DNA of 64,000 bases from positions 15,328 to 79,327 of the forward strand of contig CAVXDC010000008.1 in NCBI GenBank assembly GCA_963760365.1, given 5' to 3'. Of the stretch, positions 23,455 to 58,021 are shown piece by piece. A program made the position numbers and the translations under genes. The notes beneath the pieces were generated by a model. That model had not been told where the DNA came from. It did no database searches and worked only from the letters and a program-made list of their open reading frames with translations. The stretch's first letter is position 1, and the number at the start of each line of letters is the position of its first letter. The stretch is from an uncultured Phycisphaerae bacterium (GTDB lineage: Bacteria > Planctomycetota > Phycisphaerae > SM23-33).

Positions 23455-23543
23455 TAAATCAAGCACGCCGAACCTTAACCGGTCCGGCGTGCTTGCCGGT
23501 ATAGTCAAAGCAACTAACTGCTTGCGAAAACTGCTTGTTACGT
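23455..23543 (-). terminator. Conserved 3' trailer + intrinsic terminator, copy 5
   Basis: Nearly identical to the copy 4 trailer. Confidence 0.72.
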
Positions 23544-30968: not shown

Positions 30969-31062
30969 GGCATCTGGTGGGCAGCGGGTGGTCAAAAACC
31001 TCGCTGCGCGAATGCGCCGCACCGTCCGCACCACCGCCCGCAGCAGTGTAGGAAACTTCCTC

Positions 31063-31536: not shown

Positions 31537-31592
31537 CAAATCCGCACGGCTGCATACAGCGCAGCCGTGGCACCCCGCAAAGTCTAATCATC

Positions 31593-31892
31593 ATGCACGA
31601 GCACGGACTGGCTAAAGACCTCTTTCCGCAATTGAAGCAGATCGCCGACGCGCGGGGGCTGACGCGCGTGAAGCGGCTGGAGATGATCGTCGGACTGCTG
31701 CACGGCGCCTCGGCCGAGACGCTGGTCCACAGCTTCACCCACGCCTTCCAGGGCACAAACTTCGAAGGGGCCCAGGTGATCGTCACCATCGTCGAGCCGG
31801 GCCAGGAGTACATGCCGCCCTACGCTTCGCAACCTACTACCGCCCACGGATGGGAGCTCCTGATCGTGCGGATGGAGGAGGGGGAAGAATAA
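31593..31892 (+). CDS. HypA/HybF-like nickel chaperone lacking the zinc-finger cysteines
   Basis: MHE N-terminus, V..L..G.L, F..T.FEGA, G.EL.I..ME; no Cys at all. Confidence 0.75.
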   Translation: MHEHGLAKDLFPQLKQIADARGLTRVKRLEMIVGLLHGASAETLVHSFTHAFQGTNFEGAQVIVTIVEPGQEYMPPYASQPTTAHGWELLIVRMEEGEE

Positions 31893-31925
31893 GTGCGAAG
31901 GTCGAAGTGCGAAGTGCGTCGTGCG
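31891..31925. repeat. Degenerate heptamer tandem repeat
   Basis: aagtgcg aaggtcg aagtgcg aagtgcg tcgtgcg. Confidence 0.7.
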
Positions 31926-31971
31926 AAACGGGGCACTCATGCGGCCTAAAACACGGCTGTGAGGGGGAACT

Positions 31972-34175: not shown

Positions 34176-34357
34176 TTATCGGCAAGACCGGTCAGCGACT
34201 TCGGTTACGACAATAAGCAGGTTAAGGCCCAAGCGGCAGGCAAAAGAGGACGGATCGGCACCGGCCCTTCTGAGCGTTTTTTGTCAAAAAAGCCTAGAAA
34301 GCTCAGGAAGCCAGGAAAGATTTATGGCGAACAGGTCGAACGTTTGGGTTTTTGGGC

Positions 34358-34386
34358 TTGCATGATACACACCCGTAAGCTATACT
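34358..34386 (+). promoter_or_regulatory. Putative sigma70 promoter for the enhancer-binding protein
   Basis: TTGCAT-N17-TATACT. Confidence 0.55.
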
Positions 34387-34480
34387 GGTGTACCGTAGAG
34401 GCGCTTATCTCCACGGAGGTACCTCTTTAGTTTCGCACGGAGGCTTGCTTTATCAGTATCCATTTCGCAGGCATGGTCGG

Positions 34481-35560
34481 ATGAAGGAAGTAGGAGGAGA
34501 CACACATCCGTGCCTTGCTAGTCGCTCACTGCAAGGCGATTTCGCAGTCGGTGCGGTACTGGTCGGAGCCAGTGTTCCCTTCCGGAACGTTCTGAGGCTC
34601 GCTGACGCGGTGGCCGCCAACGACTGCGTGGTGCTGCTGGAAGGAGAGTCCGGCACCGGCAAAGAACTCCTGGCCAGGCGGATCCACGCCTATTCCAAGC
34701 GGGCCGGCGGACCGTTCATTCCCATCAGTTGCCCCTCCGTAACCTCAAGTCTTTTTGAGAGCCAGTTTTACGGCCACGTGCGCGGGGCGTTCACCGGCGC
34801 TTCCACCAACACGCTGGGCATCGTCCGGGCCGCCGAGGGCGGCACGCTGCTGCTGGATGAGATCGGGGAGCTGCCGCTGCACCTTCAGCCCAAGCTGCTG
34901 AGGCTGATCCAGCAGCGCGAGGTGACCCCCGTGGGGGCGTCCAAGCCCATCGCGGTGGACGTCCGCTTCATCGCGGCCACCAACTGCAACCTCGCCCGCC
35001 GGGCCGCCGAAGGTAAGTTCCGATCGGACCTGTACCACCGCCTGAACGTCGTCCGCATCGTCATCCCGCCGCTGCGGGACCGGCGGGAAGACATCGCGCT
35101 GCTGCTGGACTTCTACCTGGACTACTACGCCCAGCTCTACGAGATGCCCCCCCGCCAGCTCGTTCCGAACCTGCGGGAAGCGCTGCTGAAGTACCCCTGG
35201 CCGGGGAACGTCCGCGAGTTGTGCGGGTACCTGGAGCGGCAGTACGCGGCCAAGATGCCGCTAGTCATGCCCGATGCCATCGATTGGGACGATGGCAGCC
35301 TCCTAAGGGCAACCGAGGCGGAAGAGGATGCGGATGAGAATGAGGATGAGAAAAAGGTTTCGTCGGAACCCACCCGGCCCGGCAACCGCCGCAGGAAGTC
35401 GGACCGCCCCGAGCCGCTCACGCTGGCCCAGGCCGAGGCGGACATGATCCGCCGGGCGCTGGAGCTGACCCAGTACAACCGCTCCGCCGCCGCCAAGCTG
35501 CTCCAAATCCACCGCTCGACCCTCCAGCGCAAGATCCGCCTGCTGGGCCTGGACCGCTGA
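34481..35560 (+). CDS. sigma54 enhancer-binding protein without an N-terminal regulatory domain
   Basis: GESGTGKE, GAFTGA, LLLDEIG, FRSDLYHRL, WPGNVREL, Fis HTH; the AAA+ domain starts about 25 aa from the N-terminus. Confidence 0.92.
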   Translation: MKEVGGDTHPCLASRSLQGDFAVGAVLVGASVPFRNVLRLADAVAANDCVVLLEGESGTGKELLARRIHAYSKRAGGPFIPISCPSVTSSLFESQFYGHVRGAFTGASTNTLGIVRAAEGGTLLLDEIGELPLHLQPKLLRLIQQREVTPVGASKPIAVDVRFIAATNCNLARRAAEGKFRSDLYHRLNVVRIVIPPLRDRREDIALLLDFYLDYYAQLYEMPPRQLVPNLREALLKYPWPGNVRELCGYLERQYAAKMPLVMPDAIDWDDGSLLRATEAEEDADENEDEKKVSSEPTRPGNRRRKSDRPEPLTLAQAEADMIRRALELTQYNRSAAAKLLQIHRSTLQRKIRLLGLDR

Positions 35561-40354: not shown

Positions 40355-42675
40355 TTACGCGCGGGCCGCGTCGTCGTCCTCGGCGGCGGAGTCCTGCCGG
40401 TCGGCGGCGAAGGAGGCCTTCATCTCCTGCCAGTCCTCCAGCGTGACCAGGCACTCGCGGGCCTGGCTGCCCTTGTAGTCGCCCAGCAACCCCGCCTCGG
40501 CCATCTGGTCGATGATGCGGCTGGCGCGGCTGTAGCCGATCTGCAACCGCCGCTGGAGCAGCGAGACGCTGCCCCGCTGGGTCGCCAGGACGATCTCGAC
40601 GGCCTGGTCGAACAGCTCGTCCCTTTCCCCGTCAGCCCCGTCCAGCGACGCGGCGCTGAGGCGCGTCAGCTCGGTGCTGTAGTGCGGCTCGCCGCCCTTG
40701 TGCAAGGCGGAGACGACGGTGCGGATCTCCGCCTCGTCCACGTACGTGCCCTGGGCGCGGATCAGGCTGCTGGTGCCCGGCTGGAGGAACAGCATGTCGC
40801 CCTGGCCCAGCAGCACCTCGGCGCCGTTCTGGTCCAGGACGATGCGGCTTTCCAGCCGGCTGGCCACGCGGAAGCTGATGCGGCAGGGCATGTTAGCCTT
40901 GATCAGGCCGGTGACGACGTTGGCGCTGGGCCGCTGGGTGGCCAGGAGCAGGTGGATGCCCACCGCGCGGGCCTTCTGGGCGATGCGGATGATGTACGTC
41001 TCGACCTCCTTGGTGGAGGTCATGATCAGGTCGGCCAGCTCGTCGATGACGATCACGATGTACGGCAGGTGCACGGGGATCTGGGCGCCTTCTCCTCCTC
41101 GCTGGCCGCGCCGAGACGCTGATAGATTTCCTCGCGGCCCAGGCGGTTGTAGCCGGTGACGTTCTTGACGCCCGCCTCCTTGAACAGCTCGTACCGTTCG
41201 TCCATCTTGATCGTGGCCCATTCCAGGATGTCCTCGGCCCGCCGCATGTCGTTGACGATCGGGCATAGCAGGTGCGGCACGTTCTCGAAGGCAGCCATCT
41301 CGACCATCTTGGGGTCGATCAGGATCAGCCGGACCTGCTCGGGCGTCCGCGTCATCAGCAGCTCCACGAGAATGGCGTTGATGCACACGCTCTTGCCCGA
41401 GCCGGTGGTGCCGGCGATCAGCATGTGCGGCATGGAGGCCAGGTCGGCGACGATGGCCGAGCCGCTGGCGTCCTTGCCCAGGTACAGCGGCAGGTGCATC
41501 GTCTTTTCGGCATCGGGGGCGGCCTTCATCAGCTCGCGGATGCGGACGATCTCCTTCTGAAGGTTGGGCACCTCGATGCCGATGGTGTCCTTGCCCGGCA
41601 GGGGCGAGACCACGCGCACGCCCGGCACGGCCAGCGCCCGGGCGATGTCGTTGGCCAGGTTGCTGACCTGGGTGACCTTCACGCCCGGGGCCAGCGTCAG
41701 CTCGAACATCGTGATCACCGGGCCGGTCATGTGCCCCACCACCTCGGCCCCGACGGTAAAGTCGCCCAGGGTCTGCTGGAGCACGGTCCGCTTCTCGGCG
41801 GCCTGGGACTCCTGCATCTCAAGATAGTTCGTCGTCGGCTCGGCCAGGAGGTCCGGGGAAGGCAGCACGTATTCCTTGCCGTCCTGGCCACGGGCGATCT
41901 TGCCGGGCGTGGGCCTGGCCGGTGTGACCGGCGGCTTGGACGCGGGCCTGACGGCCGGTGCAAAGGGCACAGGCGCAGGCCTTACGGGCGCGACCGCTTT
42001 GAGGGGCGGGACGGGGGGCCTATCCTTGGCGGACGGGGCTTGGGCCTTGACTTCAGGCAGGTGAGTCCGGATGGCCTCCACCACCGCCGGTAGCCGGTTG
42101 CGCTCGAGCCAAACCTTTCGGCCCAGGCGCGGAATCTGGAGGACCAGGTTCTCTGCCGCCAGCAGCAGCCCGACGCACAGGGAAATGATGACGATGACCC
42201 ACGCCCCGGCCTGGGCAAACCGCGACAGCAGGTAATTCCCCACGGCCGTGCCGAGAATCCCCGCCGGCCCGACGGCCGCCCCATCGGCGGGCAAGGGCTT
42301 GATCAGGAAAACGGCGGCGCTGGCGGCGGCCATCAGGATGGCCACGCCGATGATGCGCCAGGGCATGGCGGTGATCCGGCCCCCCAGCACCAGGATAAAG
42401 GCCGCCACGGAGGCGAACGTCAACCCCATGTACACGCCCCCGCCCAGCCAATAGCGCAGCAAGTGGGCGAGGTAGGCCCCAACGATCCCGGCGGCGTTGG
42501 TGGGCTTTTGCGGCGGGTACACCGCCGGGGAGGGTGGGTCCTGCGGCGAATACGTCAGCAGGCTCAGCCAGCTCAGAACCACCAACCCCGTCAGCAGCAG
42601 CACGCCGCAGTACCGCACGGCCCTCCAACCGCCGTGGCCTTGCGGACCGGACTTGTCCTGCTGCTTGCCTGACAT
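40355..42675 (-). CDS. ftsK: DNA translocase FtsK (frameshift near 41085)
   Basis: 4TM N-domain, GPVIT, IGIEVPN, PHMLIAGTTGSGKS, IDELADL, ATQRPS, LLGQGDML, gamma domain SLLQRRLQIGYSRA. Confidence 0.97.
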
Positions 42676-42970
42676 ACCTGCGATGGTCCTATCCGCCATC
42701 CCGGTGCGTCTGACGCGCGGAGATAGCGTCGCCGCCTTGCCGAGCGCGCGGACAATTTTCTCACCTCACCCCTGCCCTCCCAGGCGAGGGTGGGTTGCGT
42801 CCCTGCGCCACGGTTCGCAAGCGCAGACTTCCTTATCTACTTATCGGACGGTCCGCCATCCGGTCTGCAAGGTATATCCCCGTTCATCCCCTGATTACCG
42901 TAACGACTGTATTCCGCATCAAAAAAGTCGCCCTAAGGGGAACACTTCTTGCCAGCAGACAGGACCGGCC

Positions 42971-44688
42971 CTAGGAAACCGCCGTCCCCTGGGAGGCGCT
43001 GCGGGTCAAATCCGCTTGGTATTGCCGGCTTTCGAAAGGCTGACCCTGCTCGGCCGCGACGCCCGCTTCGACTAGCGCCTGCCAGTGCTTGTCGTTGAAG
43101 AGGCAGCCTGGGTCGCCGGCGTGGAGCTGGCCGTAGTAGGCGTCGGCCCGGGCGCGGCACCCGCCGCAATAGTTGCGAAACGCGCAGACCTCGCAGTGGT
43201 GCAGGCGGCGCGAGCGGTCGTTGAGAATCTCGGCGAAGGCGTTGCGGCGGAAGATGTCCAGCAGCCTGGCGGAGCGGACGTTGCCCATCACACGGTGGGG
43301 CAGGTACACGCAGGGGGTCACGTCGCCGGACGGTTCCAGGCACAGGTAGGTTCGCCCGGCCCCGCAGCCGCCCAGGTACTTGGCCACCACGCGGGCCTTC
43401 ACGCCGCTGCCCGAACCGGCGTGCGAGCAGGTCACCCGCCCGCCGACCCCTGCTGACCCGGCCAGGCACACGCGGCCAAGCTGCGGGGCGGTGGAGATCA
43501 CGCCCATCCCGCCGGCCTGCATCTTTTCGTTCAACAGCGCCAGCAACCGCTCGCGCTGGGCGGGACTGATGTCGCCGCGGACCATCTTCAGCCCCCGGCC
43601 CACGGGGATGAAGTTGAAGTGCGCGAAACAGCTCGCCCCCAGGTCCTGGGCCAAAGCGATCATGTCGGCCACCTCGTGGAAATTGTCCTGATGGACGCAC
43701 ATGGCGATGCCCAGGCGCAGCCCCGGCGTCGCGGTCACGGCCTTGGCCCCGGCGACTGCGCGGCGCCACATGCCCTCCTGGCCGCGGAAGGCGTCGTGAC
43801 GAGCCTCGTCCACGCTGTCTAAGGAAATCTCCACGTAGCGCAAGCCCGCTTCGGCCAATCGGGCTGCCAATTCGGCCGTCATCGTCGTGCCGTTGGTGGC
43901 GATGGTCGTGTGCATGCCGTACCGCTTGCGCGCTCGAGCACGGGAATCAGGTGCGGGCTGACGGTCGGCTCCCCGCCGGAGATGGCCAGCATCGGCACGT
44001 AACCCCGGCCCATCTGGTCCACGACGGAAAGCTTCTCCTCCAGGCTCAGCTCCCCATCCAGAGCCGCCCGGGAGCTATCCTGGTAGCAGTGGCGGCAGGT
44101 CAAATTACAGCGGTTGGTGAAGTTCCACACAATAAACAATGGGGCGACGAACCGCTGCGGCACCTGCAAGCCGAACTCGGCCAGCGAGCGGGCCACGATG
44201 ACCAGGCCGCGGAGTGTCGGGGCGTGCTCGGCCAGGCGGCGGCGGAAGGTGGCCGCGTCCACCCCGCCGCGCATGCGGTCGATGAAACGGTGCACCGGCC
44301 AATACTTCGCCCGCAAGGACGCCGGGGCCTTGGGATTGCGATAGCTGGCGATGATCCGCTCCAAGGCCGTCACCCCGTCGCGGCCGGGGGCTGACAGTCG
44401 CCGCAGAACCCACCGGCCCAGGCGATTGCCCAACCAGCGTTCCAGCGGATGATGAAAATCGAGCTGGAGCGCCCGCGGCGTCAGGCGGTCGGAAAGACCG
44501 CCGGCCTGCACGTAGGCGCCGCTGCTGATCTGGCCGTCGTCGGTCCGCTCGGTGCGCTTGTCGGGATTGGCCGAGGGGGCAAAGTCGTCGGCGTACCGCT
44601 TGCCGATGGCCGCGGCCGTGGTGTGGTCGGCGGCGGCGGTGTAGGAGCGGACGGACTCCCCGCACCGGCTGTGCGTCAGGCCCATCAC
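42971..44688 (-). CDS. Radical SAM / SPASM domain protein with a long N-terminal extension (frameshift near 43925)
   Basis: WNFTNRCNLTCRHCY, GGEP, TNGT, SPASM CGAG..GDVTPC..C..C..CGGCRARA..DPGC; ATGA-coupled to the upstream gene. Confidence 0.9.
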
Positions 44689-46553
44689 GTCCTACCCCCT
44701 GTCGCCGCGCTCCCGGCGGCGGCGTAGCATCGCTCCACCACCGGGCGGTACTCCGGCCCGCAGTTGTACGTGCAGAACGGGAACACCCCGGCCGGCGTAG
44801 AGTAAAGGATCACGCAGTGCCGGGCCCGCTGGATGTCGAAATTGTAGCGGTCCATGAAGTGCATGCCCGCGCACAGCAGGGTCCTGTAGGTGACTTGCTC
44901 GCTCTCCCCGCGCCCCTGGTGCTTGTCCACCAGGCCCTGGAGCGAGCGGATGAACCGGTCCACGGTCAACCCCGGCGGCGCGGCGGCGGCGTTGAAGTGC
45001 CGTTTGAACATGCGGACCGTCCGCCAGCGGTCCAGCCAGGTTGCCCGGCCCCGGCGGCGGACGGCGACGGCGATGCGGTTCATGTCGCTGAACATCCCCT
45101 CCACGTCGATCACCTGCGGGAAGGGATACGCCTTGCCCTCGGGCGAGACCAGAAAGTAAGTGCCGAACGCACAGTCCGGATGGCAGCTTGGCCGGACTTT
45201 GGGCTGGCCCGTCAGGGCCTCCAGGATCTGCGACAGCGGCACGACGATGGTCAGGGGAAACATGTCCCGCAGCGCGCTGGCGCCGGAGGCGGCGGCGATG
45301 GCGTGGGCCAGGTCGCCCAGCGTGTAGCGGATGGCGTGGCGCTGCTGGGCGTCGATCCGCCCGGAGATCGAGACCGGCTGGAAGCTGATGGCGCTGACCA
45401 CGTCGATGTGGGCGACGGCGAAGCGGAAGATCTCCCCCACCTGCTCGTCGTTGACGCCTCGCAGGATCGTCGGCACCAGGCAGACCTTCATGCCGGTGGC
45501 GCGGCAGTTGGCCAGCACGGCCAGCTTCTTATCCCATAGGCCCGGGAAGTTCCGCGTGCGGCGGTAGGCCTCCTCGCCCACGCCGTCGAACTGCAAGTAA
45601 AGCGTGTGCAGTCCGGCCCGGGCGGCCTGCTCGGCGAAGCGAGGGTCGGCCAGGCGGAGGCCGTTGGTGGCAATCTGGATGTGCGAAAAGCCCATGTCTC
45701 GGGCGGCAGACAGGATTTTTAAAAAATCCGGATGCAGCGTGGGCTCCCCGCCGGTGAACTGGATGGCGGTGCAGGGGGTGGGCCGCAGATTGCGAAGCAC
45801 GCGGAGCTGGCGGTGGATTTCCTCGTAGGGCGGCTGATAGACGGCCCCGGCGGCGTTGGCATTGGCGAAGCAGACCGGGCATCGCATGTCGCAGCGGTTG
45901 GTCAGATCAATCTGCGCCAGGCACGCACACGACAGGTGCCGGCCGCACAGGCCGCAATCGGATGGACAGGGACCGGCGGCGGAGACGTGGGGATTTTTCA
46001 GCCCCGCAAGTTCCTCGAAGGTCCACCAGGCGGCCTTGGAGTACAGCAGCACGTCGCTGCTGACGCAGTCGCGGAAGTAGCCGTGGGCGGGGCAGGTTTT
46101 TTCGAGGAACACCGCCCCGTCCTGGACGAAGGAGCGCCCCAGCACCGTCGCGCCGCAGTCGGGGCAGAGGGTCTCCACGGTCCGCGGCAGGCGGCGGAGC
46201 ACCGGCTGGATGCGGTGGCCGCTGGCGGTTTGTTCGGCGCTGCCGGGAAAATCGCTGGCCAGGTCGGTCCAGATCGCGTCCTGGTGCACCTGGCGCAGGG
46301 GCGGGCAGGTGCGGCAGCGAAAGCTCAGCACGACCTGCCGGCCGATCCGCTCGAACCGGGCTGGGACCACCTGGCGGCAGGCGGGGCAGGTGGCCTGGGT
46401 CTCGACGGGCAAGGCAGCGTAGGTGTGGGCGAAGTAGCCCATGCCCCGCCGCAGCTCGGCAAGCTCCCTCCAGGGACCGGCCTGGCCGAGGACATGCTCC
46501 GCGGCTCGGCGGCGGAGGGCAGCTTCGGCATCGACGTTACGCGTCATACGCAA
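44685..46553 (-). CDS. Tetraether lipid synthase (Tes / GDGT-MAS, MJ0619 family)-like radical SAM protein
   Basis: CPDC..KTCPAHG rubredoxin-like site, CPSDCGLCGRH, DLTNRCDMRCPVCFANA, QFTGGEPT, YLQFDG, FQPVS.SGR, CHPDC, MHFMD.YNFD..R..C, PFCTYN. Confidence 0.85.
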   Translation of the reverse strand: MRMTRNVDAEAALRRRAAEHVLGQAGPWRELAELRRGMGYFAHTYAALPVETQATCPACRQVVPARFERIGRQVVLSFRCRTCPPLRQVHQDAIWTDLASDFPGSAEQTASGHRIQPVLRRLPRTVETLCPDCGATVLGRSFVQDGAVFLEKTCPAHGYFRDCVSSDVLLYSKAAWWTFEELAGLKNPHVSAAGPCPSDCGLCGRHLSCACLAQIDLTNRCDMRCPVCFANANAAGAVYQPPYEEIHRQLRVLRNLRPTPCTAIQFTGGEPTLHPDFLKILSAARDMGFSHIQIATNGLRLADPRFAEQAARAGLHTLYLQFDGVGEEAYRRTRNFPGLWDKKLAVLANCRATGMKVCLVPTILRGVNDEQVGEIFRFAVAHIDVVSAISFQPVSISGRIDAQQRHAIRYTLGDLAHAIAAASGASALRDMFPLTIVVPLSQILEALTGQPKVRPSCHPDCAFGTYFLVSPEGKAYPFPQVIDVEGMFSDMNRIAVAVRRRGRATWLDRWRTVRMFKRHFNAAAAPPGLTVDRFIRSLQGLVDKHQGRGESEQVTYRTLLCAGMHFMDRYNFDIQRARHCVILYSTPAGVFPFCTYNCGPEYRPVVERCYAAAGSAATGGRT

Positions 46554-46632
46554 TGATCCGCGGCCTGGCCTGTCCCACCGGCCCCTACCATTAAAAAGGT
46601 CCAGGCACTTATCAATTTTTTACTAAAAAGTT

Positions 46633-47928
46633 TTAGTCCCGAAAGAACGCCGGCCAGCGGCGGACCTTCTTCTTGCGCTTGCGGTAGTTGACGGCCAGTT
46701 CCATGAAGATGTCCAGGTCGCGGTCCATGTTGGAGCTGGTGGCGTCGAAGTAGAAGTTGCGGATCGGGATGTCGTCGTGTTCGGCGGCCAGGGCGTGATA
46801 GATGGCCTCGGAGATGATGCCGTTCATGCAGGAGAACGGGCTGATGTCGATGATGCCGTCGGTGCCCTTGCCGTACAGGTACACGCTCTTGCCGATCGAC
46901 AGCGCCATCTCGCCCAGCGCCCCGTCGGCGGGCAGATAGGGCCAGCCGGGCTTGAGCACCTCCTCGTACAGGTCGTGCGGCTCTTCGTAGCCGACGAAGT
47001 CCTCATCGAAGATCGCCAGGAGCTTCTTTTCGTCGCGGCGCTGCACGGCGTTCTTGACCATCGCCCCCAGCATGTCCAGGGAGATCGTCTTGCCGTCCCG
47101 CCGGAGCAGGTACTTCTGCGACCAGTTGGTGTACCACACCCACTCGCTCACGTCGCTCAGCCAGGCCTCGCCGCCGTGGGCCTCGATCTTGCGGACGGCA
47201 TCGGAGTTGCTGAAGGTGTTGAGGCGGCAGAAGATCTCCCCCACCACGCCGATCAGGGGTTTGTCCCTGGTGTAGCGGGCGGGGACGGCGTGGAACAGGC
47301 CCCGCGCGGCCTTCAGCGCCTCGGTAATCAATTCCAGGCGGTCGCGGGCGGTCAGGTCAGATCGCTCGACGACGGCCTCCACCAGGTCCAGGCTCTTTTG
47401 GTAGGCCGCGTCGGCGGTGCCGGGGGCCGTCTCGTAGGGGCGGGTCTTCAGTAGCATCTTGCGGAGGATGTCGGAGGAGACCAGCCCCCACCACAAATGA
47501 CGGATCATGGTGGTGGAATGGTTGGCCAGGCCGTCGTAGCTGTTCTTGCTGGTGGGAGAAAGGATGGGGATATCCTGCAATCCCAGCTCCTGGAGGACCA
47601 GCTTCAGGTAGGGCCCGTACTGGCCGAAGCGGCAAGGACCCTCGGCCGTGGGCATGAAGAAGGCCGTGCGGGCGGGATCAAACTCCTTGGAATGGATGAT
47701 CCGCAGGAAGTCGCCCAGGGTCACCTTCTGGGGGTAGCATTCCTCACCGCTGCTGTACAGGCCGCCGAGTTCCAGCGTGCGGTCGTCGCTGGGGGGTGTG
47801 ACGGCGGCATCGATGCCGATGGAGCGGAACGCGGCCGCCATCATCTTGGCACCCGCGTACGTCATGCGAGGGACCCACAGCGTCCTGCCCCGCAGCCGCT
47901 CTGTCGCCGTCGAACTGGCCATGCCCAA
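46633..47928 (-). CDS. PlsR-like protein (C-terminal modules of plasmalogen synthase PlsA / glycerol ester reductase; COG3581-type)
   Basis: AAAFR..G, SGEECYP..TLGD, FMPTA.GPCRFGQY, IGVVGEIF.R.N.FSN, IEAHGGEAW, GE..LSIGK, PFSCMNG. Confidence 0.8.
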   Translation of the reverse strand: MGMASSTATERLRGRTLWVPRMTYAGAKMMAAAFRSIGIDAAVTPPSDDRTLELGGLYSSGEECYPQKVTLGDFLRIIHSKEFDPARTAFFMPTAEGPCRFGQYGPYLKLVLQELGLQDIPILSPTSKNSYDGLANHSTTMIRHLWWGLVSSDILRKMLLKTRPYETAPGTADAAYQKSLDLVEAVVERSDLTARDRLELITEALKAARGLFHAVPARYTRDKPLIGVVGEIFCRLNTFSNSDAVRKIEAHGGEAWLSDVSEWVWYTNWSQKYLLRRDGKTISLDMLGAMVKNAVQRRDEKKLLAIFDEDFVGYEEPHDLYEEVLKPGWPYLPADGALGEMALSIGKSVYLYGKGTDGIIDISPFSCMNGIISEAIYHALAAEHDDIPIRNFYFDATSSNMDRDLDIFMELAVNYRKRKKKVRRWPAFFRD

Positions 47929-47929
47929 T

Positions 47930-47964
47930 CCTATTAGCCTATTAACCCTTTAACCTATTAACCT
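47930..47964. repeat. AT-rich short tandem repeat (cctattaa-like x4)
   Basis: cctattag cctattaa ccctttaa cctattaa cct, immediately upstream of the PlsR-like gene. Confidence 0.7.
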
Positions 47965-48205
47965 AAAGCCCATACCATATCGTCAAGCTCGCAGCGTTTC
48001 ACGACCTTTGTCGCGTCCGACAGGCACCAGGGAACAGGCACGCAGAGCCGACGACGGCCGTCCCCATGGAAGGACACGGTAAGTGAGGAACGCCCCCAGT
48101 CCGCCGTCTGCTTGACGCGCTCTCGGCCAGGAGTAGGATGGGGACGAGGATCGGAGGTAGATCCTCGAAATGGTAGTCCGGGAAGGAGCCCTGGGGAGGC
48201 ACGGC

Positions 48206-49093
48206 ATGTCGGGAATCCGCTTCAGCATGGCCGGCAGCGGCAACTGGCGACGGTGGTTCCCCGATGACGCGGCCTGTGCGCTGTACGAGCGCATCTACCC
48301 ACGTGGCGCGCGCCTGGACGAACTCCCGGCCGACGAGCGGCGCCGGGTTGAAGGATGGCAAGCACCGGGCTTCATCGCCGTTCGGGATGGGGTGGCGGTT
48401 CCACTTGTGCCGGTGTTTACAGACTCAGACCGCGCCGAGCTGGCTACCTGGTTCACCGTGGCGACCGAGCAGGCCGTGGCAGTTCTCCGGGACCGCATCG
48501 GGGACTATCGCCGCCTGGCCGACGCCCTGTCTGTCGGCGGACGTGTCCCGCGCGACCCTCTGCTGACCCTCCTCCTGTGCGCGCACACGCTGGATATGGG
48601 CACGCTGGAGGAACTGGAGAAGGGCGCCCTGGGCCGCCCTCCCTCCCGCGCCGACAGTGGGGAGTACTTCCTGTGGGGTACGAGCGTTCAAGGCGATCCG
48701 ACTTGCGCCTTCGGGGTCAATAGCATGCATATCGGGGATGGGTGGCTGGTCTCGGCGATCCACTCGGGAAGCGTGCGGCGGGCCGCGCCCCGTGCGGGAG
48801 TCCTGGCGATCCCCGTCCTGGACGCCGCGGCGATGCAGCGCGTCAATGACCTGTGCGTGCCCACGTCGCGACGCCTCGCGGAGGTCTTCCTGGCGAACGT
48901 CGAGCGGCTCGAGGGGCAGGTCGAGCGGTGCAGCTTCGCGGCATGCTCGCGACCCGACTGCCTGTGCATGTTGTTCCACCTGGGGTACCCCCGTGTGGCG
49001 GGCGCCCTGGTGGAAGCGGGCTTGCTTCCTGCGTTTCCCGCCCGGGTGGATGACTCGTGGGGACTCTGGATCAGCGCCCCGCTGCCGGAGTGA
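48206..49093 (+). CDS. Hypothetical protein
   Basis: 295-aa ORF preceded by GGAGG, with protein-like composition; no recognised motif. Confidence 0.6.
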   Translation: MSGIRFSMAGSGNWRRWFPDDAACALYERIYPRGARLDELPADERRRVEGWQAPGFIAVRDGVAVPLVPVFTDSDRAELATWFTVATEQAVAVLRDRIGDYRRLADALSVGGRVPRDPLLTLLLCAHTLDMGTLEELEKGALGRPPSRADSGEYFLWGTSVQGDPTCAFGVNSMHIGDGWLVSAIHSGSVRRAAPRAGVLAIPVLDAAAMQRVNDLCVPTSRRLAEVFLANVERLEGQVERCSFAACSRPDCLCMLFHLGYPRVAGALVEAGLLPAFPARVDDSWGLWISAPLPE

Positions 49094-49365: not shown

Positions 49366-51570
49366 CTACTTGGCCGCCGGGGCGGGAAGCTGCTGCTCTT
49401 TGGGGCGATACTCGTAGAAGGCCTCGTAGCTCTTCTTGAGGTACCCGCCCGGCGTGGCCATGACGCCGTTGAGCACCATGCCCAGGACGTGGGCCCCGAC
49501 CCGCAGGAGCATGTCGCGCGTGCGATGGACGATGCCGTGGGTGTTGACCCCGGCCCGGACGACCATGACCACCCCGTCGACCATCGTGCTCAGGCCGATG
49601 GCGTCGGTAACAACCAGGCAGGGGGCGGTGTCCAGCAGGACCTGGTCGTACTCCCCGGCCATCTCGGCAATCAGGGCCCGCATCTGGTCGCTGGACAGCA
49701 GCTCCGCGGGGTTGGGCGGCAGCGGACCGGCCGGCAGGACAAAGAAGTTGCTTTCCATCTCGGCGACCATGTCGCGCCAGTGGGCCTGACCGACCAAGGC
49801 GCTGCTGAGCCCTCCCGGGTCGGCGTGGGCGAACAACTGGCCGATCGTCGGCTGGCGGAAATTGGTGTTGACCAACAGCACCCGGCGTCCCGTCCTGGCG
49901 GCCGCGGCAGCCAGGTTCATGGCGACGGTCGTCCGCCCGTCCAGCGGGCTGGCACTGACGATCAGGACCGTGCGGTGCTGGTTGGCCGGACCGCTGAACA
50001 GCAGGCAGGTGTGAATCTGCCGGAAGGCCTCGCCGAACAAAGACCCCGGGTGGGTTTGGAAGGCCAGGCGAAGATCGTCGATCTCATCGTCCATGTCCTC
50101 CGCGTGGGGCACCATGCCCAACAGGGGCAAGTCCATGCGGCGGGAGACGTCCGAGGGACTCTTGATGGAGGTGTCCATGAGTTCCAGCAGAAAGGCCAGA
50201 CCTACGCCGACTAACAGACCCAGGAAGATGCCCGAGGCGATGATGACCTTCAGCTTCGGGAAGGCCATCTCTTTGGGGATGGTCGCCGAGGCGGCAATCC
50301 AGACCGCCCGCTCTCCGCCCCTGGACAGCAAACTGAGGTCCAGCAGGCGGCGGTCGATCTGCTTGATATTCTCGGTCAGCGCATCCTCCTTGCCGGCCAA
50401 GGCCTGCACGGTCGTCAGGTTGGCCTGGAGGTCGCGCAGGGTGCTGAGGGCCTCGTTGTATTTCCCGCGGACATCCATCACCTGGTTGGTGATGTTCTCC
50501 AGGCCGGCCATGGCCCCGCTCTTGAGGCCCAGGACGGCCGTGCGGATCAGTTCGTTCTTCTTGGTTTCCAGTTCCTTGCCGACGATCTCGATGGAGGCGT
50601 CGACGTCCATCACCTGCTTGTGCTGGGGGCCGAACTTTTCCGCCAAGCGGTTCTTTTGCGTCGTCAGTTGGGAGACGGTGAACTCCAACTGGCGGATGTT
50701 GCCGTCCATTTCCAGCGCCCGTTGCACGTCGCGGGTGGTGGAGAGGGTTCCGGCCCTTTCCTGGGCCTCGATGACGGCCAGGTCGGCCCGGGCCTGGGCC
50801 TGGAGCAGTTCCAGGTTCATCAGTTGGCGAGTCAGGTCCTGGAGCCGGATGTCTTGAATGTTGTAATGGCTCTGAAGGGTGGGAAATTCGCGTTTGGCGA
50901 CGGCGGACTGGGTGCGCGTATCGTTCAGCTCGGCCTCCATCCTGCGCTTTTCCGCCTCCAGGCGGGTGGCGTCCTGGCTGTGGCCGCTCTGCATGTTCTG
51001 GATGTTGTACTCCACATAGGCATCGGCCACCGCGTTGACGATCTCGGGCAGGTCGTTTTTGTCCGGTCCGGTCATCGCCAGACGGATGAAATTGGTCTCC
51101 GGCACGGGACCGACGCTCATTTCCTGGGCCAGATCCGCCACGGGATCCTTCTGCCGTCCGAACCAAGCCGTGCGCCTCACGGCGGGGGTGTTGACGGCCC
51201 CTTGGAGCACCGGGTTGATCAGCACCAGCTTGGCGTGGGAACTCTTCTCGCGGTCCATCACGTCCTTGGGCACCTGCTGGGGGGCGGCCGCCAGGGCCAC
51301 GGCCTTGGGGATCTCCACGCCCAACAGGGCCCAGGCGGTGTAGCGAGGCCAAAACATCTGCCACACCTGTGACACCGACACCACGACGACCAGGCCAATG
51401 ACGGTCGAGATGAGAATCATCCACTTCCGCTTGCGGAGGATCTTCAGGATATCGGCGGGCGTCAGCCCTATCCCGGTCGGTGGACCCATGGGCATCGGCA
51501 TCGGCCTGCCCATCGGTCCCCCGCCCGGAGCAATCTGAGGCATCCGGTCTCGCGTGGATATGACACTCAT
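49366..51570 (-). CDS. Polysaccharide co-polymerase / tyrosine autokinase (Wzc/GumC family)
   Basis: Two TMs flanking a coiled coil, EAFRQI, SASPLDGRTT, PPNPAELL, LLDTAP, Tyr-rich tail GGYLKKSYEAFYEY. Confidence 0.93.
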   Translation of the reverse strand: MSVISTRDRMPQIAPGGGPMGRPMPMPMGPPTGIGLTPADILKILRKRKWMILISTVIGLVVVVSVSQVWQMFWPRYTAWALLGVEIPKAVALAAAPQQVPKDVMDREKSSHAKLVLINPVLQGAVNTPAVRRTAWFGRQKDPVADLAQEMSVGPVPETNFIRLAMTGPDKNDLPEIVNAVADAYVEYNIQNMQSGHSQDATRLEAEKRRMEAELNDTRTQSAVAKREFPTLQSHYNIQDIRLQDLTRQLMNLELLQAQARADLAVIEAQERAGTLSTTRDVQRALEMDGNIRQLEFTVSQLTTQKNRLAEKFGPQHKQVMDVDASIEIVGKELETKKNELIRTAVLGLKSGAMAGLENITNQVMDVRGKYNEALSTLRDLQANLTTVQALAGKEDALTENIKQIDRRLLDLSLLSRGGERAVWIAASATIPKEMAFPKLKVIIASGIFLGLLVGVGLAFLLELMDTSIKSPSDVSRRMDLPLLGMVPHAEDMDDEIDDLRLAFQTHPGSLFGEAFRQIHTCLLFSGPANQHRTVLIVSASPLDGRTTVAMNLAAAAARTGRRVLLVNTNFRQPTIGQLFAHADPGGLSSALVGQAHWRDMVAEMESNFFVLPAGPLPPNPAELLSSDQMRALIAEMAGEYDQVLLDTAPCLVVTDAIGLSTMVDGVVMVVRAGVNTHGIVHRTRDMLLRVGAHVLGMVLNGVMATPGGYLKKSYEAFYEYRPKEQQLPAPAAK

Positions 51571-51585
51571 AGGCCTATGTCCATT

Positions 51586-54500
51586 TTACGGCGCATTGGA
51601 AGGCTTTTGCTCAACGCGTTGCAGGGCCTCGGTCACGGCCTTCTGGAGAGGATCGTTGGGGTCGGTCAGGTTCTCGCGCACCTGCCGGTAGTGCCTGGCG
51701 GCATCTTCCGGACGTTTGGTCTGCTCACAGACCCACCCCAGATGGTAGCGGGCCACGGCGGCGGAGGACGGGGCGGCGCTCAATTGCACAGCACGGGTCA
51801 GTTGCTTCTCGGCCTCGGCGTAGGCTCCGGTCTTGGCCAAGGCCCAGCCGTACGTGTCCAGGACATCGCCGTTGTTGGGGGCTTTTTGGGCCGCCTTGGC
51901 TGCGATCGGAACCGCCCTGTCGGGCTGGTCCATGTCGTTGATGTACATAAAGGCCAGGTTGTTCATGGTGATGGGGTTGTCGCCCCCTGCCTGGAGGGAG
52001 GCCAGGTAGGCTTTTTCAGCCTCGGGGAACTTGCGCATTTGATAGTAGGCCAATCCCAGATCACGTTCCACCGCGGCTTTGTCGGACGGCCTGGTCGACA
52101 GGGTGCTGGCCTTGGTGAGGTTCTCGACGACCTTGGGAAGGTCCCGCATCTCGCCGTAAATCCCGCTGAGCAGGATGTAATACAGGGGGTCTTCCTGGCG
52201 CGTCTTGCCCCACTCCATCATCTTGGACAGGGTGACTTTCTGCCCGTAGGCCTGTTTGATCTGCTCCACCACCATGACCAGTTCCGAGGACGATGCGGTC
52301 CGGATCGCCTCAAGGAACAAGGGGTCGGCCTGTTCGGGCCGATTCAGCTTGACCAGCGCCCGCGCGGACAGACATCTCCGGCATCCCGCAGCTCGGCTTG
52401 TCCTTATAGCTATCGGTCACGGCCAAGACTTTGTTGTAATCTCCGGCCTCCACTAACGTCAGGAGGTATTCCCTCAGAACCTCGCGGGACTCCGGGGCCA
52501 GCTTCAAGGCCGCTTCCAGGGAGGCGATGGCCTTGGCGGAGTTGCCGTTGAAGTGATACATGCGACCCTCAATGAGCAGGAAGTACGGGTCGGTGGGAAA
52601 CTTGGTTTTCGCTTCGGCCAGAAGCTCGGCGACTTTCGTCCAGCGTTGCTGCCGCTCGTAGATCCGCACCATTTCCCTCATGGCGGGGGCATAGTCGGCG
52701 GTCTCGGGTCGGTTGAGCACCTCGCGGAGGACCATCACAGCCATCTCGGTGTCGCCCAACTGCGTGTGCAGTTTTTCCAAGGCCATCGCAAGCTCAGGAT
52801 CATTGGAAATATCCTTGGCCTTAATCATCGCCATCTTGGCCTCGCTGGTCCTGCCCAGGGTGAGGAGGGCGTGGGCCTGGCCCAGGAGAGCCCCGACGTG
52901 ATTGGGGGCGATCTGGACCGCCCGTTCGAAGAGCTCTAAGCCCTGGTCTACTTTCCCCTGTTTGATGGCCAGGTTGCCCTTCATGGTCAGCAGGTCGGGA
53001 TCGGAAGGACTGGCCGCCAGCAGGGTGTTGAGCTGCTGCTCCGCCTGGGGCAATTGATCGGCTTCCAGGCGGCAGCGGATGAGTTCTTTCGCGGCCGAGG
53101 CGTTGTCCGGCTGAAGCTCCAGGTACTTGGCCAGGGCGTCGGCGGCACCGGCCCAGTCTTCGCGGCGAGACAGCAGCGAGGCCAGCGCCCGATATCCGCG
53201 AGGATCCTGGGGGGCGATTTCGATGGCCTTGGCCACAGCGGCCCGCGCCTGGTTCGGATTGACCTCCACCAGGTAATCGGCATACACCAGATACGCAACG
53301 ACTTTGTCCGGCGAGCTTTGAAGCAGCTCATTCATGACCTTCTCTGCCTCATCGAGCCGGTGGTTGCGGGAAAGGAAACCGGCCAGGACGCGCCCGGCGG
53401 CCAGTTTGTCCGAACTATCGGCATACAGGCCGCGGTACACCTCCTCGGCCTTGGCTTCCTGATGCGTCTTCTCATACAGCCTGCCTAGCTGGTAACGGTT
53501 GTACATGTCTGAGGGATTCTGCTTCTGTAATCGCTCCCGCTGGGTGATGAGCTCCTCGCTGCTGGCCTTGCCCTCCAGAATCATCAGATACCTCTGCTGG
53601 ACATAGGGGTTGTTGGGGGCCAGCCGATAGGCCCGCTCAATCCACCCGGCGTGCTCCGCCGTTTTACCCTCACGCTCGGTGACCATGGCCATGGCCACCA
53701 GGGCCGGAATGTAGCCTGGATCAACCTTGACCAACGTCAGGAAGGTCTTCTCGGCCTTCTCGAAATCGCCAATTTGGTTGTAGCAATCCCCCAGCATGAG
53801 CCAGGGCAGCTTGGCATCGGGTTCTTTCGTGACCACTTGGGTGAGATCATCGATGGCCTTGAAGAATTCTCCCTTGGCTATCGCCAAGCGCGAGGCGAAG
53901 ATTTTTCCCTCGAACCGGTCCAGGTTTGACTTCGTCGCTGCCTGGAGGCATTCCTCGGCCAGATTCCAGTCTTGCCGGAGGATGGCGTAGTTCATCAGAC
54001 GGTCGACGACGACGGGATTGTCGGGCTTGAGCTGGTAGGCTTCCCGAAGATAGTTGCCCTGGCCTTCGACGTCCCCATACCGGGCGCAAAACGCGGCCTT
54101 TTCTACCGCCCGGCGCACCGGGTCGGGGATCTGATCGGCCAACTGCATGGCCAACTGCTGGCGCTTGTCGCGATCCTTCTCCTCAATAAACTTTTCCTGA
54201 AGCTCCAGCGTGGGCGTTCTCTCGGGATGGGCGGTCTTGATCTCGGCCAGGATGGTCTTGGCCTTGGGCAGATCCTCCACGCCGACATAACAGACCAGCA
54301 GGTTCTGCCGGATCGCTTCGTTGTCGGGAAACTTGGCGTGCAGACGTTCCAGAATCCCGATGGACTCGGCGCGTTCGTCGTTGAACCACAGGGACTGGCG
54401 CGATCAATCAACGCCGCCAGGACTCCGGGGGGGATTTCCTTGGCCGCCAGGACGTCTTCGACCGGCACCTCGCCCTGCATCACCACCACCAACTGGCGAA

Positions 54501-56049
54501 GGTTCCTGGCCTCCGGATCGTTGGGATCGGCTCGAAGGACTTGGTCCAGGAGCGCCTGGGCCTCGGTGAAGTTACGGTACTGCATCTCCAGTTGCGCCTT
54601 GGCCAACAAAATCCGCCGATCGTTGGCAAAGGCAGGATAGTGCCGCATGACATCCAGGATCTGCTCGGCTTTGCCGGGCAGATTCTTTCGGACGTAGATC
54701 TTGATCAGGGCGTCGGCTATCGGGGGATCGGGACCCAAGATTTCATAGGCATGCTCCAGCAGCGGTTGGGCCTTAGCGAGGTCACCCTCCATGAAGGCCA
54801 GTCGGCCCGCGAGCTTCTCGCGCTGGCCTGCGATGTTCACGTCCGCCTCCATCTGGTTCAGAACCTCCTTGACCTGTCCGAGGAGACGGGTTTTCTCCGG
54901 GTCTTCGGCGCGGCGGGCCTCGTCCAGCAAGGTGTCGCCCAGCAGGGCCAGCAACTGGACTCGGTTGGTCGTCAGAAGCGATCGCATCGGGGAGGAGACG
55001 GGAGAGGTCGTCGAGGTTTCCGCCAACCTCTTGTCAATGATCGCCAACCCGTCCCGCAAGGCCGATAGAGATTTGTCGATCTGCTTCTGCGAACGATAGG
55101 CAACGGACAACATATTGTAGATGCGATAATCGCTGTCGTCGATCTGCTTGGCCTTCTCCAAGGCGGCCAGAGCTCCGTCGATCTTGCCCTCCCTCACCAA
55201 CCGATCCGCCAACGCCAGGTTGCCGATGGGGTTGTTGGGGTCGCGGACGATGGCCTCCTGGATTTGCGCCTTGGCTTCCTCGATCCGGTCCTTACCCGCC
55301 AGGAGCGTGGCGTACTGAACGCGCAGGTTGCCGTCATTGGGAAGCGTGCGGATGGCGTCTTCGTAGGCGGCGACGGCTTCGTCCAGGCGTCCCTCCTGTT
55401 GCAGAAAGCGCGTGTACTCCTGGCGATAGCCGGTCTCATCGCTCTTGAGTTCGATCGCCCGCCGAAAGTCGCGGATGGCGTTCTCGCTGTTGATCCCGGG
55501 CACTCCCCGGGCCAGGGCGGCCCAGGCCAGCGCCCTCAGGAACGTGGTTTTATGGTCATTGGGGTCCAGCTTCAGCAGGGCGTCGGCCTCCTTGATGAAG
55601 ATCAGCCACTCTCCCCGTTGGGCGGTGCCCCACATCAGGTCGGTGAGCAGGCGCTGGGCCTCCAGATGCGTGTTGTCCTGAACGAGGGCCTGATTCAAGG
55701 CCGACCGGGCCTGGGTGTAATGCATGGCCCGCTGCGAATCGGTGAGCTCGTCGTGGCGCTTGGTCAGCCAATCCAGTTGCAGTTTGGCAAACTGAAAATA
55801 ATAGTCCGCCTTGGCGGTGGGGTTGGGGGCGGCACTGATGGCCCGCAGCATCTGCCGTTCGGCGACCGGGTAATCGCCTTTCTCCTGGGCGACCTCGGCC
55901 CGGCGGGCGGCCTCGACGGGATCGATCCGGATAATCTTGCGGTGCCAGCCTCGTTTGTATCCGGCGTAGCCGCCCAAGATCCCTAACACCACGACGGCCA
56001 CCAACAGGATGAGAATCAGACGCAGGTTCAGCTTCTTCCGCTTGGCCAT
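51586..56049 (-). CDS. Large membrane-anchored TPR protein (PrsT-like), split by frameshifts near 54395 and 52365
   Basis: N-terminal TM after MAKRKK, continuous TPR repeats across three ORFs, C-terminal NNLA..DTYGW typical of exosortase-system TPR proteins. Confidence 0.85.
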
Positions 56050-56077
56050 GAATCCATACTCCCTCTCTAAGGAGCCT

Positions 56078-57007
56078 TCAAAATGTTGACGGGGACGAAG
56101 CGTCCAGTTTACCAACATCCGACGGCAAAGGCCACAGGGCCACCACCGCCGGCAGGAACATATTAACGAATTCCACCGTCGCCCGGTCCGCCTGGGCAAG
56201 ATCGGTGATCGGACCGGTCGGGGCCAGTTGGACCTTCGCAAAATAACAGTAGCGCACCCACGGCTTGGTCAGCTCCAGGCGCACCTTTTCCCACGACCCT
56301 TCCGGCCGACCGTTGAGGCTAAAGACGTAATACTGGACGTACCGCTTGACGTCCAGCCCGAGGCGGTCGGTCATCTCATAGCCGACGCGGTTGAAGGTCA
56401 GGCGATCCCACGGGGGGCTGACTCCGCGCAGGGTGACCGCCAGGCGCTCCGCGGCGGTGGGAATCATCGTCGCCCCCCCGGCCACCAGACAGCGGTCCGG
56501 CACGTGCGGGACTTTGTCCAGCCCGCCGGTGTAGTAGTACACCTCCAGCCGCCAGTAGCGGAAGGGATCAACCGGCGACGTCACGCGCGTGTCGCGATAG
56601 ACGCGGGTCAGGTACCAGTTGCTGCGTCGGGAGCTCAAGCGCCGCTGGTCCAAGACGGTGTTGATCTTCAGCGCCTCCAGCACGTCGTCCTGGAGGATGA
56701 GGTCTCCGTCGGCCCGGCCATCGGTGGTTTTATCAAACTCTCCGTCGCCGACCAGGACGTAGGGTCCCAACCGCTGGGGAAAAGAAAAGACCCGGCACTT
56801 GCCGTTGACCTGGACGGCCGAGGTCCAGGGGACCGCCTCCTTGCGCGTCGCCCAGCGGAGTTGGGCGATCGCCCAGTCCCAGCCGATCCACACCGCCGCC
56901 AGGATCACGGCCGCCAGGAGGAAATGGCGCTCGCCCCACACCCAGCTCCGCCGGGAGCTCCCGCGGCCAGTTTCCGTTGGCTTGTCCGATTTGTCCAAAA
57001 GGTTCAC
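56078..57007 (-). CDS. Exosortase-associated EpsI-like protein
   Basis: GTG overlapping the exosortase stop; TM, FP..LG, L.R.Y.D, YYTG..VPHVPDRCLVAGG, YF.KVQ. Confidence 0.8.
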   Translation of the reverse strand: MNLLDKSDKPTETGRGSSRRSWVWGERHFLLAAVILAAVWIGWDWAIAQLRWATRKEAVPWTSAVQVNGKCRVFSFPQRLGPYVLVGDGEFDKTTDGRADGDLILQDDVLEALKINTVLDQRRLSSRRSNWYLTRVYRDTRVTSPVDPFRYWRLEVYYYTGGLDKVPHVPDRCLVAGGATMIPTAAERLAVTLRGVSPPWDRLTFNRVGYEMTDRLGLDVKRYVQYYVFSLNGRPEGSWEKVRLELTKPWVRYCYFAKVQLAPTGPITDLAQADRATVEFVNMFLPAVVALWPLPSDVGKLDASSPSTF

Positions 57008-57999: not shown

Positions 58000-58021
58000 C
58001 GGGCCACAACCATGGACGCGG

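Follow-up and report, generated by a model that had tools for sequence, protein, structure and literature searches.

A plsR-like, tes and gms-like gene cluster of Phycisphaerae as a candidate for making membrane-spanning ether lipids

Could three neighboring genes of an uncultured bacterium, together with one gene elsewhere in its genome, turn diacyl glycerolipids into membrane-spanning lipids with ether bonds? Glycerol dialkyl glycerol tetraethers of the branched type (brGDGTs) and branched glycerol monoalkyl glycerol tetraethers (brGMGTs) are widely used temperature and pH proxies, and their producers and biosynthetic genes are unsettled. The three genes, referred to here as plsR-like, tes and gms-like, lie on the minus strand of a 64,000-nucleotide stretch of DNA (the window, which is the whole stretch that was analyzed), corresponding to G000:C8:15328-79327 of a 2.43-Mb metagenome-assembled genome (MAG) of 55 contigs that is 71% complete. 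The host belongs to the Phycisphaerae according to the names of its closest proteins and loci, which are Phycisphaerae or Planctomycetota, and runs from freshwater sediment (X2) and from peat (X3) contained pieces identical to the window. An earlier reading made from the letters of the window (the sequence-only reading) had described three co-oriented genes of a planctomycete-like source, and both the orientation and the source agree with what we found. We consider it reasonably likely that plsR-like, tes and gms-like form an operon that acts with an unlinked plsA-like gene to convert diacyl glycerolipids into spanning lipids of the brGDGT type in which at least some of the linkages are ethers. 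If gms-like is intact, this reading most likely extends to chain-bridged lipids of the brGMGT type.

Judged from its profile scores and ligand pattern, the middle gene is a Tes homologue. Its product scored 471.8 bits against the Tes equivalog model of NCBIfam (NF045702), which is just 22 bits above the cut-off of 450, and it scored 307 bits against the next family, TrsS, for which the cut-off is 490. Pfam places a Radical_SAM domain (SAM, S-adenosylmethionine) and two Zn_ribbon_HMPTM (PF23545) stretches on the protein. The second zinc ribbon lies within the first ~120 residues, and residues 123-598 (~475 residues) align to the archaeal enzyme GDGT-MAS (7TOL) with an E value of 1e-105. The metal sites of GDGT-MAS are described in PMC9433317 as C9X2C12X20C33X2H36, an [Fe4S4]N cluster on three Cys and one His, the CX3CX2C motif, and a C-terminal cluster with the labile Met439, and in the 7TOL alignment every one of these sites, including Met439, has a counterpart in the window protein. 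The sequence-only reading had recognized the metal-site patterns of tetraether synthase in this protein, and all of them were recovered, including CxxC-x20-CxxH, CxxxCxxCxxH and the radical SAM CxxxCxxC. The ligands C130/C133/C154/H157, C196/C200/C203/H206 and C221/C225/C228, as well as H458, C461, M564, C580 and C594, were invariant in 20/20 aligned Phycisphaerae sequences. The gene is single-copy in the MAG.

The first gene appears from sequence matches and a structural model to encode a PlsR-type subunit with the fold of the benzoyl-CoA reductase, 2-hydroxyacyl-CoA dehydratase and double-cubane cluster proteins (BCR/HAD/DCCP). The reference architecture is that of Ger, which is described as making alkyl ethers anaerobically (PMC13159169), and of single-gene PlsA; both join a C-terminal part to what we call the BBD half, with two PF01869 (BcrAD_BadFG) domains and one PF09989 (DUF2229) domain, and the same architecture is reported as split into plsA and plsR in Clostridium perfringens (PMC13159169, PMC12838417, preprint 10.64898/2026.06.23.733905). 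Searching the window protein against Pfam gave DUF2229 alone, below threshold (21 bits vs a cut-off of 29.4). The protein has more than 4,000 relatives of similar length, the best 120 of which are stand-alone proteins of ~402-494 aa with 66-91% identity, and the organism-named members among these 120 are Phycisphaerae or Planctomycetota. Among longer proteins, those of ~1400 aa with PF09989 and two PF01869 domains match it in their C-terminal third; identity is 35-52% and the alignments cover ~90-99% of its length, in keeping with the earlier proposal that it corresponds to the C-terminal modules of PlsA/PlsR. These longer relatives range from 756 to 2155 aa, nearly all of the 120 listed carry PF01869 and PF09989, and their names are absent or generic, not those of the verified enzymes.

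The AlphaFold2 (AF2) model of the plsR-like protein reached a mean predicted local distance difference test (pLDDT) score of 81.6 and a predicted TM score (pTM) of 0.85. Its Foldseek neighbors were the double-cubane cluster protein 6ENO, 2-hydroxyisocaproyl-CoA dehydratase 3O3M, and the benzoyl-CoA reductases BzdNO and MbdON (8S02, 9GAI), with a probability of 1.00 throughout and modest TM scores of 0.38-0.50. Residues C64, C99 and C367 were invariant in an alignment of 19/19 sequences and may be the ligands of an Fe-S site. The first possible start codon of the gene is a TTG at 47928, which would give 431 aa, and the ATG at 47922 is the likelier start because the N-termini of homologues match it. 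Predicting a complex of Tes (residues 123-622) and the plsR-like protein gave a score of 0.00, where the mark is 0.32; this lends no support, and we take it as evidence neither way.

The gap between plsR-like and tes, 79 nt or more in the window (Table 1), ranges from 18 to 421 nt among 53 loci of relatives. A consensus scan found no promoter in this spacer, and over 42600-48300 of the minus strand the same type of scan gave one promoter-like site vs 0.5 expected, which is chance level, and five terminator-like sites vs 3.0 expected, nothing beyond chance. The leader of plsR-like (47930-47975, minus strand) holds three to four direct repeats of the TAATAGG type (…GGTTAATAGGTTAAAGGGTTAATAGGCTAATAGG…) in an otherwise 65-70% GC region, and the repeats of this leader (TTAATAGG type) showed no conservation among the 22 relatives examined. 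One 936-aa protein from a metagenome contig (P0139) joins the C-terminal half of a plsR-like protein to a full Tes through a ~110-residue spacer. We did not count it as a fusion because it comes from a single contig and looks like read-through of the spacer.

The third gene is assigned to the Gms (GMGT synthase) family on the basis of its architecture, its archaeal relatives and the account in PMC11214058 of bacterial Gms homologues in gene clusters with tes. Gms is described there and in PMC11186832 as a homologue of AhbD that has, besides its radical SAM core and SPASM domain, an N-terminal extension of ~100 aa (COG4001). Both Radical_SAM and SPASM were recognized by Pfam in the window gene, and ~180 residues precede the radical SAM motif in the intact orthologue of locus L014. 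A profile built from ten intact orthologues matched proteins of ~470-510 aa from profile position ~41-52 onward, with E values of 1e-100 to 1e-188, and these matches take in the N-terminal extension. The named clusters among the matches are archaeal (Aigarchaeota, Thermoprotei/Desulfurococcales, Methermicoccus shengliensis and Bathyarchaeota), further archaeal members were found in Ignicoccus, Pyrodictium and Conexivisphaera, and the experimentally verified Gms proteins (WP_062369926.1, AAL80771.1) were absent among the clusters listed for the profile searches. The L014 orthologue shares 38% identity over 467 aa with the M. shengliensis protein, from residue 2 of the latter and with the N-terminal extension included, and 41% identity over 388 aa with a protein of Ignicoccus hospitalis. 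An AF2 model of an intact orthologue had a mean pLDDT of 63.2, with the SPASM part below 50, and about seven helices at residues 81-172 with pLDDT 71-90. The sequence-only reading had regarded this SPASM enzyme as an uncharacterized tailoring step. Since it is a Gms homologue, and the family has been characterized in archaea, that description no longer fits.

Two details of the earlier description hold in part. The last two genes do overlap at stop and start, although the letters are GTGATG and not ATGA, and the tes stop TGA overlaps the gms-like start by four bases if this is GTG or by one if it is ATG. The third gene is indeed a SPASM radical SAM gene, but it is present as two overlapping open reading frames (ORFs) in different frames and not as one ORF. 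Across relatives, we collected a gms-anchored set of species representatives, consisting of the best 80 of 189 relatives, all 80 of which are Planctomycetota. In 50/80 of these loci (e.g. L055:7520-8008), tes and gms-like are separated by a gene of ~160 aa whose product bears a signal of the lipoprotein type (…LVSGC…). The window, with its overlap of tes and gms-like, has no such gene, nor was it found in the 71%-complete MAG with the L055 protein as query. The contig of a relative (run X1, record 3) has 2,165 other letters between tes and gms-like, at the place of window positions 44685-44737. Set against the overlap in the window, this insert shows that the content of the tes/gms-like spacer varies between close relatives.

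One rival reading is that the cluster does not act on lipids at all. A function in cofactor, haem or peptide modification, with the third gene an AhbD/NirJ-type enzyme and the first a CoA-ester dehydratase subunit, would agree with the fold neighbors of the first protein, which are acyl-CoA dehydratases and reductases, and with the best named NCBIfam matches of the third, which are NirJ2, AhbD and TIGR04053. All of these matches fall far below their cut-offs, however (150 vs 500 bits for NirJ/AhbD), and the third protein shares its N-terminal helical extension with an archaeal family of ~470-500 aa, the extension being the feature that separates Gms from AhbD according to PMC11214058. In addition, the closest longer relatives of the first protein all have the PlsA/Ger architecture, and no consistent clustering with haem genes or with genes for peptides that are made on ribosomes and then post-translationally modified (RiPPs) was seen in the 120 loci examined. 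We therefore regard a non-lipid function as extremely improbable.

Both Tes and Gms are archaeal families, and the window Tes scores above the archaeal equivalog cut-off, so the cluster might act on archaeal-type isoprenoid ether lipids and carry out true GDGT/GMGT synthesis in a bacterium. We found no match over cut-off to geranylgeranylglyceryl phosphate synthase (PF01884) in the MAG, which is only 71% complete, and an ester reductase in the operon would make sense solely for acyl-ester lipids. On these grounds isoprenoid substrates seem very improbable.

The gene order is shared by many Phycisphaerae. Co-occurrence was scored in a class sample of 200 other genomes of the Phycisphaerae, with thresholds of E <= 1e-30 for any Tes match, E <= 1e-100 for a strong one and E <= 1e-40 for a PlsA/PlsR-type match. 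Since related genomes are not independent, the counts across genomes should be read with this in mind. A Tes match was found in 92/200 genomes and a PlsA/PlsR-type match in 74/200. In the host's own family, Tes was present in 25/26 genomes and plsR-like in 26/26, and plsR-like lay directly upstream of tes in 23/25; as read from the coordinates, it was within 1.9 kb in G174 and on another contig in G104. Stand-alone plsR-like genes (at least 53% identity) occur in this family and in G046, G003, G183, G085 and G064, and outside those genomes the plsR-like match is mostly part of a fused gene, with an open frame of ~1,390-1,890 aa.

Neighborhoods were compared in 40 fetched loci and in the gms-anchored set. 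The pair plsR-tes was present in 8/8 fetched loci of the same family, and gms-like came next in 7/8. L016 and L022 carry BBD, plsR, tes and gms in one line, and in L032 the BBD-plsR pair is 3.5 kb from tes. A fused reductase gene lies divergently beside tes in L041, and the reductase and tes are 3.5 and 10 kb apart in G091 and G098. Families f6, f11, f4 and f18 have tes-gms without plsR, and the shorter Tes of f3 and f12, like more distant paralogues, stand alone. Among gms-anchored loci with at least 2.6 kb upstream, tes was found in 57/68; with at least 4.2 kb, tes was found in 44/55 and tes plus plsR-like in 42/55; with at least 7.4 kb, tes plus plsR-like was found in 34/45, with BBD also in line in 6/45. 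Conservation of the neighborhood had been named earlier as a check on the cluster, and the trio proved syntenic in many Phycisphaerae.

These counts bear on a rival in which the spanning lipids made by Tes and the Gms-like enzyme are tetraesters of the iso-diabolic-acid type that carry no ether bonds, PlsA/PlsR separately makes plasmalogens or monoethers, and the operon reflects co-regulated membrane remodeling. Consistent with such a division of labor, in Koribacter versatilis the presence of Tes alone reportedly coincides with tetraesters (Chen et al. 2025, cited in PMC13023045), GDGT-MAS is described as binding ester lipids (PMC13274423, PMC9433317), tes lacks an adjacent reductase in families f3, f6, f11 and f12, and the BBD half is unlinked in most genomes. 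The position of plsR-like directly before tes throughout most of the host's family, and its independent linkage to tes in other families, argue the other way. So does co-occurrence across the class sample: a PlsA/PlsR-type match was present in 61/69 genomes with a strong Tes but in 13/131 others, a comparison uncorrected for kinship. We judge the tetraester alternative rather unlikely.

An ether-forming role for the plsR-like protein would call for its other half. The sequence-only reading had suggested looking for the activase half elsewhere in the genome, and the sole BBD (PlsA-like) gene of the MAG was located at G000:C50:6123-9535 (locus L054), among unrelated genes. The plsA-like and plsR-like genes are thus neither adjacent nor fused in this organism, being on different contigs (C50 vs C8). 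They are adjacent in L016, L022, L032 and 6/45 gms-anchored loci, and most other Phycisphaerae families have them fused. The translation of the C50 gene holds Arg/Pro-rich stretches, and a window-by-window tblastn search with an orthologue revealed ~10 frame changes over 1.8 kb, from ~7540 to ~9310. Most of the shifted segments retain 65-97% amino-acid identity to the orthologue, and therefore indel errors fit them better than decay.

The gms-like gene has a frame break of its own, where the window has one base fewer than its relatives (Table 1). In the alignment, the window reads ...LERAS|GTAC... where orthologues have ...LERAKSYGVHTT...; orthologues read ...LERAKSYGVHTTIATNG..., and in the window ...LERAS stands in one frame while the next frame carries (K)RYGMHTTIATNG. 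Contigs of relatives that are about 88-91% alike (X1 record 3 and X3 record 14) carry one extra G behind 43927 on the plus strand. Near-identical pieces from X2, X3 and X4 were recovered, none of which spans 43927. Orthologues of gms-like were uninterrupted in 16/16 loci and in 78/80 loci. Downstream of the cluster, ftsK (window 40355-42699, minus strand) is likewise split into two overlapping ORFs of 548 and 343 aa in different frames, which break at about 41070-41120. L101, the closest relative, has ftsK in a single frame, as two match starts differ by 1641 = 3 x 547 bases, and the break in the window is probably an assembly indel.

If the frame breaks were real, the pathway would be broken in this organism. 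It might then be decaying, with gms-like and plsA-like as true pseudogenes and tes and plsR-like alone intact. The frameshift at about 43927, the roughly ten frame changes in the C50 gene, and the fact that no near-identical read or contig spans the frameshift site all speak for decay. Against it stand the frame break in the normally indispensable ftsK, which is whole in L101, the identity kept in the shifted C50 segments, and the uninterrupted gms-like gene of 78 orthologous loci. Decay is in our view quite unlikely. Because ftsK and the C50 gene are also frame-broken and the orthologues of gms-like are uninterrupted, we consider it very likely that the breaks in gms-like and plsA-like are assembly indels.

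With family assignments, conserved ligands and a gene order observed across many genomes as its base, our preferred reading of an ether-forming, tail-coupling operon can be set out as three steps, whose substrates, order and products are proposed from sequence. In the first step, the C50 PlsA-like protein, with two BcrAD_BadFG ATPase domains and a DUF2229 domain (Red1), would use ATP to drive low-potential electrons into a Red1/Red2 pair. Red2 would be the 429-aa plsR-like protein with its putative three-Cys Fe-S site C64/C99/C367, and the pair, in the manner of PlsA-PlsR and Ger, would turn acyl esters on glycerol into alkyl or alk-1-enyl ethers by reduction. In the second step, Tes, with a predicted radical SAM cluster, two auxiliary [4Fe-4S] clusters and a rubredoxin-like iron, would join the terminal carbons of two lipid tails, so that a pair of lipids in the bilayer becomes one spanning lipid. 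In the third step, the Gms-like SPASM enzyme would place a C-C bridge between the two spanning chains. The product may be brGDGT, brGMGT or diabolic-acid-type lipids.

Several points weigh against this pathway. The gms-like frameshift and the ~10 frame changes of the plsA-like gene are both in the MAG, the plsA-like gene lies apart from the cluster here as in most relatives and stands in line in 6/45 loci, and the literature searched holds no lipid data for the organism or its relatives. Among the genomes with a strong Tes, 8/69 gave no PlsA/PlsR-type match at E <= 1e-40, and in families f3 and f12 tes mostly occurs by itself; the reductase is thus not a strict requirement for Tes. PMC13023045 states that none of the bacterial Tes or Gms homologues has undergone a biochemical test and that the acidobacterial evidence is correlative, and PlsA (vinyl ether) and Ger (alkyl ether) are described as not distinguishable by sequence (PMC13274423).

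A bolder version, which we put forward tentatively and do not expect to hold in full, is that a PlsR-type subunit has come to serve the Tes/Gms pathway as its dedicated partner. The split reductase would then act on spanning lipids made by Tes, taking tetraesters to tetraethers, and the four-gene set would be the sought brGDGT/brGMGT determinant in anaerobic Phycisphaerae of peat, wetland and sediment. If true, this would name a major non-acidobacterial source of the brGDGT/brGMGT palaeoclimate biomarkers. A small gene set in which a predicted reductase subunit is physically linked to Tes and Gms homologues is suited to testing whether bacterial Tes makes spanning lipids and whether their ether bonds come from an enzyme of the PlsA/Ger type.

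The surroundings of the cluster and the rest of the MAG offer further observations. Directly adjoining plsR-like on the upstream side, at 49366-59416, is an exosortase/PEP-CTERM-type polysaccharide locus (Table 1), and Wzc and TPR genes likewise lie upstream of plsR-like in several relatives (e.g. L015, L018, L019, L062, L088, L105). On contigs C45, C35, C4 and C29 of the MAG there are seven or more radical SAM genes of the B12-binding kind (~480-630 aa, loci L137-L143). None of these passes any NCBIfam cut-off, so no GrsA-like ring synthase was identified among them by this measure, and candidates for a lipid methylase or ring synthase could be among them. Elsewhere in the window, the GC content of 18000-24000 is 0.555-0.569 vs 0.62-0.72 around it, and 26412-35560 holds signaling genes, namely two histidine kinases, a response-regulator diguanylate cyclase (31972-33012) and a sigma-54 activator (34388-35560).

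Table 1. Features of the cluster and of the adjoining polysaccharide locus, in window coordinates
Feature	Position	Strand	Description
gms-like	42971..44688	-	AhbD-like radical SAM/SPASM with N-terminal helical extension; two frames in the assembly
gms-like, C part	42971-43915	-	314 aa; remaining core and SPASM domain
gms-like, N part	43879-44688	-	269 aa; radical SAM CxxxCxxC motif
gms-like frameshift site	43925..43930	-	one base fewer than relatives, near 43927
tes/gms-like stop-start overlap	44683..44688	-	GTGATG
tes homologue	44685..46553	-	Tes/GDGT-MAS family radical SAM, 622 aa, extra N-terminal zinc ribbon
plsR-like/tes spacer	46554..46632	-	AT-rich; 79 nt to TTG tes start, 85 nt to ATG at 46547
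plsR-like	46633..47922	-	putative stand-alone subunit (Red2 type) of a split ester reductase of the PlsA/Ger kind (BCR/HAD family); 429 aa with ATG 47922 as start
Wzc-like tyrosine kinase	49366-51570		
PrsT-like TPR proteins (two)	52310-54280, 54103-56241		
exosortase EpsH/XrtA	57004-57999		
SLBB export protein	58022-59416		

How does this cluster compare with known systems? Bacterial Tes homologues were put forward as brGDGT enzymes in 2022 (PMC8941075), and Tes and GrsA homologues in Phycisphaerae as well as Ger in Planctomycetota have been described from the Black Sea (PMC11868695). Tes together with Ger is reported to coincide with brGDGTs in Solibacter usitatus (Chen et al. 2025, cited in PMC13023045), and a pathway of PlsAR followed by Tes is among the proposals of Halamka et al. 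2023 and Chen et al. 2025, both cited in PMC13023045. Garcia et al. (PNAS 2024, PMC11214058) describe bacterial gms homologues that cluster with tes, 71 of them from Planctomycetes, and others from Acidobacteria. Their clusters resemble the window in having a Tes homologue followed by an AhbD-like SPASM radical SAM protein with an N-terminal extension in Planctomycetes, and the product proposed there, bridged spanning lipids (brGMGTs), is one that we propose here too should gms-like be intact. They differ in that 'PlsA' and 'glycerol ester reductase' occur zero times in the main text of that paper, whereas the first gene of the string described here is predicted to encode a PlsR-type subunit; the window also lacks the small lipoprotein gene that most of the gms-anchored relatives hold between tes and gms. 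No statement of a plsR-type gene operonic with tes was found in the main texts searched, and Fig. S15 in the supporting information (SI) of PMC11214058 may show it.

The archaeal Tes/GDGT-MAS (MJ0619, 7TOL/7TOM, NF045702) is matched by the window protein, which keeps all four metallocofactor motifs and the Met439 equivalent. The window protein differs in coming from a bacterial host and in its extra N-terminal part of ~120 aa with a second zinc ribbon, and the substrate of the window Tes is presumed to be fatty-acyl or alkyl and not phytanyl. Compared by described architecture with PlsA-PlsR of C. perfringens and Ger of Thermotoga maritima and Desulfatibacillum alkenivorans (PMC12838417, PMC13159169), the window reductase shares the ATPase-ATPase-Red1 plus Red2 organization, the BCR/HAD-type fold and the Cys residues, and as in C. 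perfringens it is split into two polypeptides; by this comparison vinyl and alkyl ethers are not told apart for the window. In contrast to both systems, the two halves are unlinked, and Red2 is in an operon with tes and gms-like and not with plsA. The route of Mss plus Ger to spanning ether lipids (Sahonero-Canavesi et al. 2022, and a study of Bacillota, PMC13274423) likewise combines a radical SAM tail-coupling enzyme with a PlsA-family ester reductase, but the coupling enzyme of the window is of the Tes type and its genes are clustered, whereas Mss and Ger are described as co-occurring in genomes. With tes-gms clusters, the joint occurrence of Tes with Ger, and Tes homologues of Phycisphaerae already in print in the sources cited above, the gain made here is limited. 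What is new, as judged from gene content and order, is the operon link between a predicted reductase subunit and tes-gms, together with the split and unlinked layout of the reductase.

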